In this document: one piece after another, positions 8,085 to 13,289 of the stretch
Layout: each line of letters starts with the position of its first letter
Position numbering within the stretch: the stretch's first letter is position 1
From: Nanobdellota archaeon
GTDB lineage: Archaea > Aenigmatarchaeota > Aenigmatarchaeia > QMZP01
Direction: 5' to 3'
Length of the DNA: 13,289 bases
NCBI GenBank assembly: GCA_043814765.1
Contig: JBDRJQ010000001.1
Coordinates: 1 to 13,289, forward strand
Notes under the pieces: model-generated
What the model was told of the DNA's origin: nothing
The model's input: the letters and a program-made list of their open reading frames with translations, nothing else
The model's database searches: none
Position numbers and translations under genes: made by a program

Positions 8085-9980
8085 TCAGCCATAGAAAATA
8101 GGCCTCTTAGTCAAAAGCATTGGCAGAGGCAGTGGTCTGTAAGGGAAACCATCAGTCTGCTTCTTTATCTCTTTGACAAGTGAAGCAGTGCTTAGTGGCT
8201 TTATCTTTCCTGTCTTTCTTTCTCTAACAGCTAGCTTGCCACTCTTTTTCTCTTTATCTCCAACAACAATTATGTAAGGAATCCACTCTGATTCTGCATC
8301 CCTAACTTTCTTTCCTATAGATTCGACTCTATCATCAATATCAACACGTATGCTCTCTTTCTTGAAACTCTCTGCAATTTTTTTGCAGTAAGCAAGCAGA
8401 GAATCATTCATTGGGCACAAACGCACTTGTGTTGGTGATAGCCATAACGGGAATGTCACATTTTTTCCAGACTCTTTTTCCATGTGAGCTTTTTCCAGTA
8501 TAGCATACATCACCCTTTCTATTGCTCCGGACGGAGACTGGTGCAATATTATAGGATATTTTTTTGTGTTGTCCTTGTCAGTGAATGTTATGTCATATCT
8601 TTCCGCGTTCTCAACATCTATCTGATCTGTTGAAAGCGCTGCGGCCTTGTCCAAAGCGTCCACAAAGTTTAGCTCATATTTCAGTATGAAGTAAAAGAAT
8701 CTCTTGTCCCACATCTCTACCAGTATTGGCTTGCCCCATTTCTTTGCAATCCTTTTGATGTAGGGCCTGTTCTCTTCATAAAAATCATTAACAACTCTCA
8801 AGGCGAATTCAAGGTCGCTCTTTCCGAGGTCGAAGCCCTGGGAAACTTTTATGGAAAGGTCCAGCCTTCTGAAAAGATCTTCTTTGGCCTGTTCAATGTC
8901 CCTGCAGAATGAGTGGCAATCAGGCATTGTAAAGGCTCTAAGCCTTTTTAGTCCGCTAAGTTCCCCCCGCTGCTCAACACGAAAGCTGTATCTTGACAGC
9001 TCGTAAAGCCATAGTGGCATATTTTTGTGAGAAAAACTTGCATCATGCATCATTAAAAACTGACCAAAACATGCAGCAAAACGCAGGAAAACCTCTTTGT
9101 TGGGCGTCTGTATCCTGTATTGTCTTGCAGGGAATCTGTGCATGTATTTTTTCAATGATGGATGTTCGTAGTCATACATTATAGGAGTTTCCACCTGCAT
9201 TGCTCCTGCTTCAACTGTGCTTCTTGTAACAAAATCCTCTATCAAGGATTTTATCAGCTTTCCTTTGGGATAAAAACGGAGATTTCCTGGGTCACTACCA
9301 GGCTCATAATCAGCCAGTTGCATCTTCTTCATAAGGGCAATATGAGGAGGCTCCTGCTTTGCAACACGAACCTTCTTCATTTCATAAGCAGCAAACTTTT
9401 CCAGATTTTTGTACTTGGAAAAATTATAACCCTTTATCTTATCATCAGCCATTTCTATTTTATGAAGCTTTCCAATCGTGTCCATTATATACCATTGAGA
9501 TTTCAGCGTCTCCTCTGCTTTCAGGGCGTCAGAGATGTCATTTTTTACCTCTCCTGCTCCTTGCGCAGTTACCTGTTTGGATAGCTCAGCTAGTGGATGA
9601 CCTTTAACTTTGATATCAAAAGACTTGTACCAGCCAAAAGGCGCTCTTTTGACTGGTATTTTCTTTTCTTTCAGTAAACCTTCCATGCACTCTAATGTCC
9701 TAAGAGCCATGGAAGGGGATGACAAATCAGCGGATAAATGAGCATAAGGATAAACAACCACGTTTTTTGCTTTCACCTGCTTCAAAACCCCTTCAATCTC
9801 TGCAACTGCGTTGGCTGCCACAGCATCTGTGTTCTTCTCATCTTCCTTCTCAACAGCTGTGAAAACTACCAGAACTTCCTTAATCTTTATTGGCTTCATC
9901 GGTGTTTCTTCTGCTAACTTTATAGCCCTTTTCTGAGGCTCCCATTCAATAAAGTCAGAATGTAATAATAATAATTTCAA
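8085..9980 (-). CDS. thrS: Threonine--tRNA ligase, archaeal type with N-terminal DTD-like editing domain
   Basis: YPYAHLS, RAPFGWYK, GHPLAELS editing domain; LRFAACFGQF, FRVEQRGEL, RAFTMPDCH, ILHQSPSGAIER; C-terminal anticodon-binding domain; TTG start preceded by GTGA. Confidence 0.97.
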   Translation of the reverse strand: MKLLLLHSDFIEWEPQKRAIKLAEETPMKPIKIKEVLVVFTAVEKEDEKNTDAVAANAVAEIEGVLKQVKAKNVVVYPYAHLSADLSSPSMALRTLECMEGLLKEKKIPVKRAPFGWYKSFDIKVKGHPLAELSKQVTAQGAGEVKNDISDALKAEETLKSQWYIMDTIGKLHKIEMADDKIKGYNFSKYKNLEKFAAYEMKKVRVAKQEPPHIALMKKMQLADYEPGSDPGNLRFYPKGKLIKSLIEDFVTRSTVEAGAMQVETPIMYDYEHPSLKKYMHRFPARQYRIQTPNKEVFLRFAACFGQFLMMHDASFSHKNMPLWLYELSRYSFRVEQRGELSGLKRLRAFTMPDCHSFCRDIEQAKEDLFRRLDLSIKVSQGFDLGKSDLEFALRVVNDFYEENRPYIKRIAKKWGKPILVEMWDKRFFYFILKYELNFVDALDKAAALSTDQIDVENAERYDITFTDKDNTKKYPIILHQSPSGAIERVMYAILEKAHMEKESGKNVTFPLWLSPTQVRLCPMNDSLLAYCKKIAESFKKESIRVDIDDRVESIGKKVRDAESEWIPYIIVVGDKEKKSGKLAVRERKTGKIKPLSTASLVKEIKKQTDGFPYRPLPLPMLLTKRPIFYG

Positions 9981-10049
9981 CTAAATCACGATCCTAGTTA
10001 ATATATATGTTTTTAATAAATAAAGCTAAATCAGATATAAGTAGTCTAT

Positions 10050-10065
10050 GTATAACGGTCAAGTA
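10050..10065 (+). repeat. Degenerate copy of the spliced tRNA-Gln D-arm exon junction
   Basis: GTATAACGGTCAAGTA vs GTGTAGTGGTCAA|GCA (11007-11019 + 11051-11053): 12/16 identical, all four mismatches are transitions. Confidence 0.5.
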
Positions 10066-10066
10066 A

Positions 10067-10074
10067 TATTTAAG
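10067..10074 (+). promoter_or_regulatory. Candidate TATA box of the LAGLIDADG gene
   Basis: TATTTAAG 22-29 nt upstream of ATG 10096; no SD, so probably leaderless. Confidence 0.45.
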
Positions 10075-10095
10075 ATTTCAAATCTAATATAATAC

Positions 10096-11007
10096 ATGAA
10101 TGATAGAATTGTTTTTAAGAGGGGTAAACAAGGGGAATTTCTTAAAAAAGCAAAGGAACTTGGTAAATATTCTTGGAAAGAATTGGCTCATTTATGTAAG
10201 GTGAATGAAGGTACACTCCTAGTTAATTTAAGGACTGAGAAAACTACAGTTTCTATTGAACTATTTAATAATGTTATAAAAGAATTTCCTTCCCTAAGAT
10301 CTTATAAAAACTATATTGAAGAAATAAAACCAAGATATTGGGGATCAAAAAAGGCTGCTAAAATTACAAACAAAAAACAAGGTAAAAAAATAACTGTTAA
10401 AGAAAACAACCAAGAAATGTCAGAATTAATTGGAATAATTCTGGGTGATGGTAACTTATATTCAAATAAGAAATCAGGAAACTATTACCTTTGTATTGTG
10501 GGTGATAGGAAAGAAGAGGATTATTTAATTGGTTTTGTAAAGCCACTAATAGAGGGGTTATTTGGTACTGAGGTAAAAATAAGTAGAGCAAAAAAATCTA
10601 ATACTACTTATTTAAAATTACAAGGCAGAAGAGTTATCGAGTATTTTATTGGAAATCACGATCTAATACCTGGAAATAAAATAGAAAATAGACTTAGAAT
10701 ACCAAAATGGATACAAAAAAATAATGATTTTTTAAAGGCATGTATAAGAGGATTAATAGACACTGATGGGTCTGTTTTTAGATTATCAAAAAAGGATCCA
10801 AATATAATAAGAATATCATTTAAAAATTTCAATAATGAGTTAATGTTTGATATGAAATCATCTCTTATAAAATTAGGATATAATCCAAGCAAAGTTACGC
10901 ATAAAAGCATATATATTACAAAAAAAGAGAATGTAAATAGATATATGAATGATATAGGGTTTAATAACCCTAAACACAGAAGGAGATATGAAGAAATAGC
11001 CCTGTAG
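10096..11007 (+). CDS. Free-standing double-motif LAGLIDADG (DOD-type) homing endonuclease with N-terminal HTH-like domain
   Basis: ELIGIILGDG and CIRGLIDTDG motifs with both acidic residues kept; GNK..RIPKWI; C-terminal IGF; N-terminal SWKELAHLCKVNEGTL helix-turn-helix-like segment; no intein splice motifs; visibly more AT-rich than thrS. Confidence 0.9.
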   Translation: MNDRIVFKRGKQGEFLKKAKELGKYSWKELAHLCKVNEGTLLVNLRTEKTTVSIELFNNVIKEFPSLRSYKNYIEEIKPRYWGSKKAAKITNKKQGKKITVKENNQEMSELIGIILGDGNLYSNKKSGNYYLCIVGDRKEEDYLIGFVKPLIEGLFGTEVKISRAKKSNTTYLKLQGRRVIEYFIGNHDLIPGNKIENRLRIPKWIQKNNDFLKACIRGLIDTDGSVFRLSKKDPNIIRISFKNFNNELMFDMKSSLIKLGYNPSKVTHKSIYITKKENVNRYMNDIGFNNPKHRRRYEEIAL

Positions 11008-11101
11008 TGTAGTGGTCAATCTAGTTTTTTGTAAAAAAGACTAGGACTAAGCATGTGAGGTTCTGGACCTCTCGACCCCGGTTCGAATCCGGGCGGGGCT
11101 A
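10998..11101 (+). tRNA. tRNA-Gln(CTG) with a 31-nt intron at non-canonical position about 21/22
   Basis: Acceptor AGCCCTG/CGGGGCT plus discriminator A; D-stem GTGT/GCAT; anticodon arm TGAGG-TTCTGGA-CCTCT; T arm CCCGG-TTCGAAT-CCGGG; A1-U72 typical of archaeal tRNA-Gln; CCA not encoded. Confidence 0.93.
11020..11050 (+). other. Archaeal tRNA intron with a relaxed bulge-helix-bulge motif
   Basis: Central 4-bp helix GGTC (11014-17)/GACT (11045-48); bulges AAT and AAG; intron hairpin CTAGTTTTTT-GTAA-AAAAGACTAG. Removing it restores GGTCAAGCAT. Confidence 0.85.
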
Positions 11102-11114
11102 TTTTATTTTTATT
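11102..11114 (+). terminator. T-rich terminator after the tRNA
   Basis: TTTTATTTTTATT immediately after the discriminator base. Confidence 0.5.
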
Positions 11115-11147
11115 AGTTTTAATAAGGGGCTCAACTAATAATTATAC

Positions 11148-11378
11148 ATGGGACTATTTGATTTTCTAAAAAAGAAAAAAACAACCAAGGCTTCTAAAAG
11201 GAAAAAACCATCTAAAGTTGCTAAAATAAAAAAGAGCAACGTTACTAAAACAAAACCTATGGGTGTCAGGGTAAAGAAAACCAAAACAGGCTCTAAGTTC
11301 TACTTTGACGACATAGAGAAGAAGATAACCAAGTCGCAGAAGACCAAAGTGATACTTAGAGTTAAGACTAAAAAGTAA
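11148..11378 (+). CDS. Small lysine-rich hypothetical protein
   Basis: 76 aa ORF filling the gap; MGLFDFLKKKK N-terminus; TTTAATAA TATA-like at 11118-11125. Confidence 0.65.
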   Translation: MGLFDFLKKKKTTKASKRKKPSKVAKIKKSNVTKTKPMGVRVKKTKTGSKFYFDDIEKKITKSQKTKVILRVKTKK

Positions 11379-11389
11379 TAAAACCAGTA

Positions 11390-13289
11390 TTATTTTTTAT
11401 TTGAATCTGTTTGAATTGTTTTTTTAATTCTTTTCACAATACCAAAATTTAATACCTTTCCAAACTCTTTAACAATACCAAATTTTATTTTTCTTATAAT
11501 CCATTTACCAGAAAGATAATTTATTATTTTTGATTTAAATGCAATGTAAATTATTATGCTTGTTATAATAAATAGAAATAATGTGGCATAATTATAGTTG
11601 ATTCTCACAATTTTTGTTACATTAAACGTGTCACTACCTACGACTTTTGACTTGTAATCATCCCCATAAAGAAGAGTTACCTCTAATTTATATAATCCAC
11701 TTTCTATGCTTTCGGGTAATGCTATCTCTCTAAATAAATTAGCTTTGTTTTCTACAACAACATTTTCTGATATTTCTAATAAGATATTGCTATTTTCATC
11801 TATTATTTTAAATTCTATTATGACATTGGATTTTCCAGAAAGTTCAACATCTGTTAGTTTTATTACAGCAACAAGAGCATCTTCTACAGATATGTCTTTA
11901 TAGATAGCAGGTATCTCTAACAGCATGTCAAATGACGGTTTAAGTTCTACTACCAATTCTTCTTTTTCAAGTTCCGGAACGGTATAAGTGCATGACTGAA
12001 TTTCTTCAGGTTTGTTTTGTTGATCAGAACAGGTTCCAGTATAAGTACAAGTCCTTGTTTGAATGTTTTCTGTTTCACATTCTTCCCAACTAGTGCACTC
12101 CCATTCATGGAAGCAATTGCTTTTATCATCAGAAGGACTTGAGGGAGTTTCTGCATCATTAGAACCGCTATCAGTTTCTTCATCAGGAGTTTCTTCTGCA
12201 GAATATGTAGAAAAATGCAATACACTGAAAACAAACATTCCATTCTCATATGAAATCTCTGTACATACTGAATCCGGACATTCTTCACCGTTTAAAACAG
12301 GCCTTGGATCTGTGTAATTTAAATTGTAAACATGAACATTAGCAGGTTTGTTAAGTGCAGTCAATGCATTTGCGTTGAGCTGTATTGAGTTAAACGCTAT
12401 ATTGACATTGCCGTCTATATCTGCGCCTGAACTCAAATTTACAGCTTCTTGAAACATTATCTTACCTGCAGAAGAATTTTCGATTATAAGACCCGCTATA
12501 TTCGAGACATCAACTGAGCTCAAATCAGTGGTATTTCCTGAAAATTCAGTTGTTAGAATAACAGAGAACTGCCTGCTCTTTGAAGAGCCAATGTTTCCTT
12601 CAGAATCTGTGCAATTGATGCTCCATTCATAATTCAAAGCTGCGAGATTATTTGTCGTGAACTCCTGTATCATATTCTTTGTTACACTCGAATCAGTTTG
12701 GTTTATCTCGCCACCTATAATCAGGAAGCAGTTGTTTATGTCAGAAGAATCTGTTACGTTATAGCTAAAGGTGATGTTGCCGTCTATATCACCGCTACTA
12801 TCTGCTGGTGAGATTAAAGTTATAACAGGGGCTTCCTCATCAGATACCAAGAGTGTGTAATCAACACTCACATTGTAAAGCTTTGCTGATAAGCTAACAG
12901 AATTGCTTGTGAAATCAGCCTGATATTGGAAATACCTGTTATCAGAAACGGATAGATTTTCTCCAGAAGAGTCTGCATAACTTCCGGAAAAGCTTCCATC
13001 ACTGCAGTTGGCCAGCGCGCAGGATCTTGCCTGAAAAGTCAGGCCAGTCTCAAGCAAAAGGGCAGCCATTCCCTTGGCATTCCCATTATCACTGTTGAAA
13101 TTGGTGATGGTCTTTGTCCAGTTAAGCCCGCCATCAGAAGATTTCCACACATCTTCATCTCCTTCTATGATAAACACATTATCATCACTATCAACAATAC
13201 CGGTTTTTATGTGTTGTCCTTCGCCATTATAATCATCGTTTATCTTGGTCCAATTCTCACCCAAATCAGTCGACTGCCAGACGTCATCA
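11390..13289 (-). CDS. Large modular membrane-anchored surface protein (5' end beyond the window)
   Basis: Frame open to the window edge (DDVWQSTDLGENW). Contains two Asp-box/BNR repeats, an Ig-like DEEAPVITLISP module, an HFSTY motif, an acidic S/P linker, a Cys/Trp-rich TSP1-like module, a C-terminal TM helix and a basic tail; many N-x-S/T sequons. Confidence 0.85.
   Translation of the reverse strand, partial: DDVWQSTDLGENWTKINDDYNGEGQHIKTGIVDSDDNVFIIEGDEDVWKSSDGGLNWTKTITNFNSDNGNAKGMAALLLETGLTFQARSCALANCSDGSFSGSYADSSGENLSVSDNRYFQYQADFTSNSVSLSAKLYNVSVDYTLLVSDEEAPVITLISPADSSGDIDGNITFSYNVTDSSDINNCFLIIGGEINQTDSSVTKNMIQEFTTNNLAALNYEWSINCTDSEGNIGSSKSRQFSVILTTEFSGNTTDLSSVDVSNIAGLIIENSSAGKIMFQEAVNLSSGADIDGNVNIAFNSIQLNANALTALNKPANVHVYNLNYTDPRPVLNGEECPDSVCTEISYENGMFVFSVLHFSTYSAEETPDEETDSGSNDAETPSSPSDDKSNCFHEWECTSWEECETENIQTRTCTYTGTCSDQQNKPEEIQSCTYTVPELEKEELVVELKPSFDMLLEIPAIYKDISVEDALVAVIKLTDVELSGKSNVIIEFKIIDENSNILLEISENVVVENKANLFREIALPESIESGLYKLEVTLLYGDDYKSKVVGSDTFNVTKIVRINYNYATLFLFIITSIIIYIAFKSKIINYLSGKWIIRKIKFGIVKEFGKVLNFGIVKRIKKTIQTDSNKK

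Follow-up and report, generated by a model that had tools for sequence, protein, structure and literature searches.

In Caldiarchaeum subterraneum, Sugahara et al. describe a tRNA-Thr gene disrupted by a 1.8-kb insert: a 5′ piece of the tRNA remains upstream of the insert, and the recombinase gene of the insert directly adjoins a rebuilt tRNA that acquired an intron at position 24/25. That intron, they suggested, arrived together with the element and keeps out further invaders (Sugahara et al. 2012, PLoS One, PMC3293823). A review of T4 endonucleases describes two further systems: the operator of I-TevI, which has 15 of 20 nt in common with the homing site, overlaps a late promoter and is bound but poorly cut, and the free-standing T4 endonucleases, which practice "intronless homing" and include SegB in a tRNA gene cluster (PMC2988022). 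The same source reports host promoters embedded in endonuclease genes. Here we analyze a 13,289-nt stretch of DNA (the window), part of an archaeal genome (G000; 859 kb in 39 contigs), in which a LAGLIDADG endonuclease gene ends inside a tRNA-Gln gene that carries a D-loop intron. A short tRNA-like element lies just ahead of the endonuclease gene at 10043-10065, and we conclude that it is very probably the displaced, decaying, intron-less 5′ part (about positions 1-25) of tRNA-Gln(CUG).

The tRNA-like element and its place in the locus

Aligned with the spliced sequence of the window's own tRNA-Gln, the element reads as tRNA positions 1-7 (10043-10049), a deletion of positions 8-9, and positions 10-25 (10050-10065). 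A reading made from the sequence only had singled out this last part, and its particulars held. The segment 10050-10065 agrees with the intron-less D-arm 16-mer at 12 of 16 positions, the run GGTCAAG (10057-10063) is unbroken across the position of the intron, and the four mismatches (10052, 10055, 10056 and 10064) are all transitions. The preceding AGTCTAT (10043-10049), likened loosely to the tRNA start, matches positions 1-7 at four of seven sites and differs by transitions at two more. Directly after the element comes the box TATTTAAG (10067-10074), with the ATG of the endonuclease gene at 10096, 22 nt further on; at the other end of the gene, the stop codon TAG (11005-11007) coincides with tRNA positions 8-10.

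Chance resemblance in A/T-rich intergenic DNA had been left open by the sequence-only reading, and for the window alone the question is indeed a close one. Besides the tRNA itself, 10050-10065 is the only 12-of-16 match in the window. Local alignment of the 115-nt intergenic region with the spliced tRNA gave a score of 8, which was equalled in 9.9% of 2000 dinucleotide shuffles (p = 0.10) and in 27% of 515 other 115-nt windows, and a one-jump alignment, which allows a single free skip for the intron, gave p = 0.33 under +1/-1 scoring; generic scoring is thus not significant, which speaks for chance. Transition-aware scoring points the other way. The one-jump alignment with transition-tolerant scoring gave p = 0.02 (400 shuffles), and a targeted test of the upstream segment -95 to -10 against the spliced 5′ 32 nt of the tRNA gave p = 0.014 (1000 shuffles), pairing 10045-10065 with tRNA positions 4-25 by 15 matches, 6 transitions, no transversions and one gap. 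(These two tests replaced an earlier cross-locus alignment with unlimited free gaps, whose null was too noisy.) By itself the window match is borderline; it becomes convincing only through comparison with other genomes.

The first such comparison concerns the position of the element. The divergent neighbor of the endonuclease gene encodes threonyl-tRNA synthetase (ThrRS), which serves as a synteny anchor. In the sister genome G001, of the same genus, ThrRS is followed after 73 nt by tRNA-Gln, with no endonuclease gene between them. Between the two genomes collinearity, at 74.5% identity, extends from ThrRS across a common promoter block to about position 10028 of the window, and just past this block 10043-10065 aligns with the 5′ part of the G001 tRNA-Gln. 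The motif TTTAATAA stands 30 nt before tRNA position 1 in G001 and, in the window, 23 nt before the element; we read the latter copy as the probable original TATA box of tRNA-Gln. By this collinearity and spacing the element therefore lies where the tRNA once began, downstream of its probable former promoter, and no tRNA 3′ part comes after it.

Upstream copies at homologous loci

Homologues of the endonuclease were found in 32 of 61 related genomes (E <= 1e-5), in 14 of 91 genomes of the order (E <= 1e-18) and in 31 of 371 genomes of the class (E <= 1e-25). We gathered 52 loci and built a tRNA covariance model, R1. For 36 of 47 sources R1 matched a tRNA on the strand of the open reading frame (ORF), starting -40 to +120 relative to the ORF end and mostly at -9, -14 or -22, so that the homologous ORFs end in, or just ahead of, a same-strand tRNA; for the remaining 11, which have multi-intron tRNAs or lie at contig ends, a tRNA 5′ end was read by eye at the ORF end. 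By our own reading these tRNAs are of the Gln, Asp, Gly, Glu and Ser types. G000 itself has two more such pairs, with an ORF that stops 3 nt (L005) or 22 nt (L004) before a same-strand tRNA.

The targeted test was applied to 33 of these loci with 1000 shuffles each, the other 19 being left out because their tRNA and intron offsets were not set. At 12 of the 33 the upstream region matches the 5′ part of the locus's own spliced tRNA at p <= 0.05. Upstream mimics of the neighboring tRNA, which the sequence-only reading had proposed to look for at other tRNA-adjacent LAGLIDADG genes, do exist, and 21 loci have no significant copy. Several copies are nearly exact and start at tRNA position 1: L039 (in G063, a tRNA-Asp) matches at 27 of 28 positions, L037 (in G086) at 24 of 27 and L052 exactly over 14 nt, and the copies of L064 (tRNA-Gly) and L066 also run from position 1. 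At L007 (in G047), the closest syntenic homologue, the copy matches at 21 of 24 positions, including an 18-nt exact run across the intron site. L036, L046 and L044 have decayed copies.

At every clear locus the copy ends 22-42 nt before the ATG, right at an A/T-rich box. In L007, L036, L037, L039, L046 and L064 this box follows the copy directly, in the same place as in the window, and in promoter alignments the block formed by tRNA copy and A/T box is the best-kept part of the intergenic region. The window element is positionally homologous to the clear copies in L007, L036, L037 and L039. Across loci, the summed score of each upstream region with its own tRNA was 711.5, against 579 ± 23 for permuted locus-tRNA pairs, and none of 20,000 permutations reached it; for fit to the window's upstream region, the window's own tRNA ranks second of 33. 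With the all-transition mismatches and transition-aware p values of the window, unmistakable copies at the same position in homologous loci, collinearity with the G001 tRNA and these permutations all standing against it, chance resemblance is hardly credible. The same-place copies and the G001 collinearity instead strongly support the first of the two explanations that the sequence-only reading had offered, namely that an insertion left behind a 5′ piece of the ancestral intron-less tRNA, which then decayed.

We also considered the upstream element as a true 5′ exon, with the ORF lying in a giant intron. This was rejected, as the tRNA at 10998-11101 is complete and has a good acceptor stem, and as the upstream piece of L007 cannot pair with the 3′ acceptor strand.

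A duplication at insertion would yield the same final layout of promoter, 5′ copy, insert, 5′ part and rest of the tRNA. Both the upstream copy and the working 5′ part would then come from the resident tRNA, with no foreign 5′ part, either as a long repeat resembling a target-site duplication or as tandem tRNA copies that the endonuclease gene came to separate, with the intron as a later gain. Identity of the L039 copy with the working exon over 24 nt fits such an origin, as does the pair L010/L039, in which tRNA and intron are identical at 105 of 105 positions and the flanks at 72-74%, so that the working tRNA and its intron look like conserved resident DNA. However, the upstream copies are intron-less even where related genomes already share the intron, and a search for tRNA positions 27-76 between upstream copy and A/T box found no trace of them in the loci examined. 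At L064, moreover, 12 of 30 positions distinguish the two 5′ parts, and it is the upstream copy, not the diverged working one, that pairs perfectly with the downstream 3′ acceptor strand; this argues that the working 5′ part came from elsewhere and did not arise by duplication on the spot. The overhangs left by LAGLIDADG enzymes are 4 nt long, and on such general grounds a 25-nt staggered cut is not expected of them. We consider a duplication origin improbable and retain displacement by an incoming 5′ part.

The second proposal of the sequence-only reading was a target-mimic operator, a role that could come on top of an origin as a scar. By analogy with I-TevI, the endonuclease would bind the element without cutting it and repress its own transcription; the left half-site contacts of the LAGLIDADG core, the N-terminal helical domain or both might hold the DNA, and TBP/TFB would be blocked at the adjoining box. 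The element does resemble the intron-less D-arm, the presumed endonuclease target. The constant position of the clear copies at an A/T box, 22-42 nt before the ATG, favors such a role, as do the I-TevI precedent (PMC2988022) and the modular build of the protein, whose model shows an extra N-terminal helical domain on a disordered linker. Likewise, L011 and L038 share a 33-nt block over decayed copy and A/T box with 2 differences, at an overall DNA identity of 77.7%, with shared derived changes relative to their tRNAs and with flanking intergenic DNA that is much less alike, and L016, L018 and L020 have a common 8-nt tRNA-like core by a conserved A/T box.

These points are met by others. The window copy is only 15/22 identical to the tRNA, has a 2-nt deletion and is kept no better than the adjacent spacer between G000 and G001. 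The 21 loci lacking a significant copy have intact ORFs; the L011/L038 block does not match the tRNA significantly (p = 0.59 and 0.074), and part of the block is TATA/BRE (the element for TFB recognition), conserved in any case. Finally, the first base of several copies is tRNA position 1, a precision not called for in an operator. Judged from the alignments, the window copy seems to have decayed at about the neutral rate, with L011/L038 as the sole pair hinting at constraint. An operator role is possible on this evidence, and we regard it as doubtful.

The endonuclease cassette and the interrupted tRNA

The features of the locus are listed in Table 1. By our reading of its sequence the window tRNA appears to be a tRNA-Gln with anticodon CUG. 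In the Rfam alignment it has a 34-nt D-loop insertion, and the probable intron boundaries are placed by comparison with the intron-less tRNA-Gln of relatives (L076, L078 and L103), in which the same junction is uninterrupted. ARAGORN reported no tRNA in the window because of the D-loop intron; Rfam and R1 both detect it.

Table 1. Features of the ThrRS/tRNA-Gln locus and of its promoter-like boxes, in window positions
Feature	Position	Strand	Basis
ThrRS gene, TTG start at 9980	8085..9980	-	Pfam tRNA-Thr_ED, tRNA-synt_2b, HGTP_anticodon
Conserved divergent promoter block common to G000 and G001	9995..10026	+	Pairwise and global alignment
Probable tRNA-Gln 5′ relic, intron-less, decayed	10043..10065	+	Alignment to own spliced tRNA; homologous loci; G001 collinearity
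TATA-like box of the endonuclease cassette, marking its left end	10066..10074	+	Read from sequence
LAGLIDADG endonuclease gene, 303 aa	10096..11007	+	Pfam LAGLIDADG_3, LAGLIDADG_2
TTTAATAA within 3′ end of endonuclease ORF, candidate tRNA promoter	10960..10967	+	N30 spacing to tRNA
tRNA-Gln	10998..11101	+	Rfam RF00005, 47.1 bits; own covariance model R1, 52.4 bits
tRNA-Gln exon 1	10998-11019		
tRNA-Gln D-loop intron, 31 nt	11020-11050		
tRNA-Gln exon 2	11051-11101		
TTTAATAA copies	2962-2969, 10012-10019, 10960-10967, 11118-11125		

The protein looks like an intact endonuclease, given that its catalytic aspartates are invariant and its predicted fold is like that of I-DmoI and I-Tsp061I. Pfam matches LAGLIDADG_3 at residues 212-288 (E 2.7e-9) and, below the curated cut-off, LAGLIDADG_2 at residues 111-178. 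Each of the two LAGLIDADG motifs has an acidic residue, and 16 homologues are invariant at G113, L116, G117, D118 and G119 and at R218, G219, D222, T223, D224 and G225, which include the catalytic D118 and D224. The AlphaFold2 model (pLDDT, the predicted local distance difference test score, 91) shows a helical domain at the N-terminus (about residues 1-80), joined by a disordered, Lys-rich linker (85-96) to a core with both motifs on a single chain. Searched as a whole, and so dominated by the LAGLIDADG core, it had I-Tsp061I (2dch), I-DmoI and PI-PfuI as its top Foldseek matches in the PDB, at probability 1.00; for I-DmoI and I-Tsp061I, which are also the best PDB sequence matches (E about 0.002-0.007), the Foldseek E was about 2e-9 to 6e-9 and the target-normalized template-modeling (TM) score 0.70-0.75.

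Four of the five TTTAATAA copies in the window sit 22-30 nt before a gene start or the relic, and the motif seems to behave like the TATA box of G000. The TATA-like box at 10066-10074 lies 22 nt before the endonuclease ATG, which suggests a leaderless endonuclease mRNA, and its distance to the ATG matches that from TTTAATAA to the start at 2962/2993 and 11118/11148. That this box is the endonuclease promoter is inferred from sequence, and the earlier remark that the tRNA-like element lies where a BRE would be depends on the same promoter. In a listing of sequencing runs, no RNA run covered 9700-11400, and the sole run sharing words with this stretch was a DNA run with a small part of them. A further copy of TTTAATAA, encoded in the conserved "GFNN" codons at the endonuclease C-terminus, precedes the present tRNA by exactly 30 nt. 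The same spacing, TTTAATAA-N30-tRNA, occurs at the native G001 tRNA and within the ORF ends of L007, L036 and L052; a coding motif at the endonuclease C-terminus thus appears to double as a tRNA promoter.

Introns lie close to the junction with the endonuclease gene at many of the homologous loci. D-loop inserts are present in 17 of 37 rows of endonuclease-adjacent tRNAs versus 3 of 26 other rows, two of which actually overlap an ORF end, and many adjacent tRNAs that have no D-loop intron instead have one just 3′ of position 26-32. Around the intron, the minimum-free-energy fold of the window pre-tRNA has two helices with a 3-nt bulge (positions 21-23) between them; of the two 3-nt bulges separated by a 4-bp helix that define a bulge-helix-bulge at the splice sites, the second is not predicted. 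The 3′ end of the intron pairs with D-loop bases of exon 1 in a 5-bp helix beside the 3-nt bulge, and D-loop introns at other loci end in the same motif, which suggests a relaxed splicing motif built of exon and intron. We had considered this intron end as a duplicate of the D-loop and rejected that, since the fold shows it paired with the D-loop in the helix next to the splice bulge.

Some further features of these loci deserve record. Endonuclease stop codons fall almost always within the tRNA, either at U8-A9-G10 as TAG or as a D-loop TAG or TAA, with recurrent offsets of -9, -14, -22 and -27; RNase P cutting at the tRNA 5′ end would therefore strip the stop codon from a co-transcript. The L010 (G050) and L039 (G063) tRNA-Asp genes, identical over tRNA and 31-nt D-loop intron, adjoin endonucleases that are 61% identical, and either strong constraint or recent conversion would explain the intron. 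At L004 (G000:C3) and L005 (G000:C37) a tRNA gene stands on either side of the endonuclease gene; the upstream one has an anticodon-loop intron, and the downstream tRNA of L005 has both a D-loop and an anticodon-loop intron. G000 also has two stop-interrupted LAGLIDADG reading frames, G000:C29:420-992 (L002) and G000:C37:1905-2561 (L003); of these, the TGA-broken one lies inside a 16S rRNA gene, presumably in an rRNA intron, and the TAA-broken one about 500 nt downstream of an intron-containing tRNA. Elsewhere in the window, 963-1424 and 1324-2631 are overlapping ORFs, each with a Toprim match, which may represent two paralogues or one primase-like gene that is split or frameshifted, and 11390-13264 (-) is a 624-aa ORF whose sole Pfam match, to the Nup98-96 autopeptidase S59 family, is weak and sub-threshold (E 2.4e-4).

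Relatives allow the ThrRS/tRNA-Gln locus to be compared in several states. A ThrRS orthologue is present in 85 of 91 genomes of the order, and at 8 of 29 ThrRS loci fetched a tRNA-Gln lies within 1.5 kb, divergent from ThrRS. At this locus the endonuclease gene is present in G000 and G047 and absent in G001, G003, G006, G040, G041, G044 and G059, as expected of a mobile gene; in G087, G086 and G002 the gene is not beside ThrRS, so that among the close homologues only those of G000 and G047 have this synteny. Three states can be told apart: no D-loop intron and no adjoining endonuclease gene (G006 and G040), D-loop intron with endonuclease gene (G000 and G047), and D-loop intron without endonuclease gene (G001, G003 and G059). 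In G041 (L093) and G044 (L094), the endonuclease-free tRNA-Gln by ThrRS is interrupted behind D-loop position 15 by about 100-130 nt of inserted sequence, at a site other than that of the window intron; the insert could be another intron type or a degraded cassette remnant.

The observed anatomy, its recurrence in other genomes and the G001 collinearity fit a course of events for which we infer the cleavage specificity, the protection by the intron and the use of the promoters. A cassette of about 0.95 kb would have entered the tRNA-Gln gene at about position 26/27, containing the TATA-like box, the LAGLIDADG ORF and the embedded tRNA promoter, and would have brought along a replacement tRNA 5′ part (exon 1 of the present tRNA) followed by the 31-nt D-loop intron. 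A working tRNA would be completed, from about position 27 on, by the resident 3′ part, and the old 5′ part, left beside the old tRNA promoter, would mutate away, mostly by G/C-to-A/T transitions. The endonuclease would cut intron-less, cassette-free tRNA alleles in the region of D-arm and anticodon stem; the intron, or in other loci an intron just 3′ of the junction, would shield the rebuilt tRNA gene, and the relic would escape cutting with the right half of the target missing. Recombination between the relic and the new 5′ exon could later delete the endonuclease gene again, leaving an intron-bearing tRNA as in G001.

Several points weigh against this account. G001 is not a never-invaded site, as it has the homologous D-loop intron (tRNA and intron are 86% identical), and its state therefore requires that the endonuclease gene was lost secondarily. 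The model gives the cassette no defined right end, nor does it account for how the correct 5′ part is gained on a move to another tRNA type. Generic scoring does not make the window match significant on its own (p = 0.10 and 0.33). The 21 of 33 loci with no significant upstream copy include L004 and L005 of the same genome, the close homologue L008 (38% identical protein, same tRNA type), L010 (p = 0.11), L011 (p = 0.59) and L038 (p = 0.074). Related genomes, moreover, are not independent, and counts of loci overstate the number of events.

With displacement by a cassette as the preferred origin, the 16-nt resemblance would be a fossil of the invasion of a tRNA gene by a homing-endonuclease cassette. 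It leads on to an architecture that recurs in many genomes of one archaeal class, with LAGLIDADG genes that run into tRNA genes and introns in those tRNA genes near the junction. We tentatively put forward, as one combined picture, that these loci represent an undescribed selfish element in small-genome archaea of this class, a minimal tRNA-colonizing LAGLIDADG cassette that is not an intron. It would overwrite the 5′ part of a tRNA with a copy that carries a promoter in the last endonuclease codons and an immunity-giving, protein-spliced intron; many D-loop and anticodon-stem tRNA introns would be immunity footprints, left when the endonuclease was lost by recombination between relic and exon; and the relic by the cassette's TATA box would double as a binding site that throttles endonuclease expression. 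Taken jointly, we hold these propositions to be possible rather than probable.

The architecture bears on the origin of non-canonical tRNA introns and of tRNA fragments in archaea. The idea of delivery by a mobile element with protection from re-invasion has so far come mainly from one integrase-type case (PMC3293823), and the three predicted states, comparable side by side at the ThrRS/tRNA-Gln locus, make it testable. For annotation, standard tRNA finders miss such tRNA genes, and endonuclease ORFs overlap them. Single-chain LAGLIDADG enzymes with natural targets in conserved tRNAs and an extra putative DNA-binding module may also interest meganuclease engineering.

Comparison with known systems

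We did not find this architecture in the literature on LAGLIDADG or homing endonucleases and archaeal or DPANN tRNA genes or introns, in which subscription journals were thinly covered. The closest precedent is the tRNA-Thr locus of Caldiarchaeum (PMC3293823). Both loci have an upstream, incomplete 5′ direct repeat, an insert and a same-strand gene right beside the rebuilt tRNA, and both have an extra intron near the junction, at 24/25 there and at about 21/22 in the window, where the relic ends at about 25/26; in the window, too, the rebuilt tRNA has the intron and the displaced relic is uninterrupted at that site. The differences lie in the insert and in its distribution. In the source's account, the Caldiarchaeum insert, with its putative recombinase, is explained by attP/attB integration of a pNOB8-type element at one locus in one population, whereas the window layout recurs in many genomes and several tRNA types. 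The window insert measures about 0.95 kb, and its ORF runs into the tRNA. The LAGLIDADG protein is encoded by the only ORF between relic and tRNA, and the window Pfam scan found no integrase or recombinase in the insert. The locus works like the model of Sugahara et al. (2012) but is not of the integrase-element kind.

The free-standing T4 endonucleases (PMC2988022) are by analogy the closest functional kind. In both cases the gene stands outside a self-splicing intron, among or beside tRNA genes, and presumably spreads when its product cuts alleles without the gene and the gene is copied in together with flanking DNA by co-conversion. By contrast, SegB is a GIY-YIG enzyme encoded between intact tRNA genes and targets a tRNA intergenic region, and the passages of the review on it describe no displaced fragment, replacement 5′ part or protective intron for it.

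The resemblance to I-TevI, described in the same review, lies in a target-like sequence at the endonuclease's own promoter, which may be bound and stay uncut if part of the target is missing. I-TevI, however, is a GIY-YIG enzyme of a phage T4 group I intron for which binding and repression have been measured, whereas the window enzyme belongs to the LAGLIDADG family and its upstream element derives, in our reading, from a displaced gene piece that shows no conservation beyond neutral.

I-DmoI and I-Tsp061I resemble the window enzyme in being single-chain proteins with two motifs, and they are its best structural and PDB sequence matches. They are encoded inside bulge-helix-bulge introns of archaeal rRNA genes; the gene of the window enzyme, by contrast, lies ahead of the tRNA and not in its small intron, and the protein has about 100 additional aa that form an N-terminal domain. 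Organellar group I intron cases offer a last parallel, in that an endonuclease gene arrives with a replacement piece of the host gene and the displaced piece decays as a duplicate. What is replaced there is the terminal coding segment of a protein-coding gene, whereas the window cassette has an archaeal tRNA gene as its host, the intron is protein-spliced and the endonuclease ORF overlaps the tRNA.

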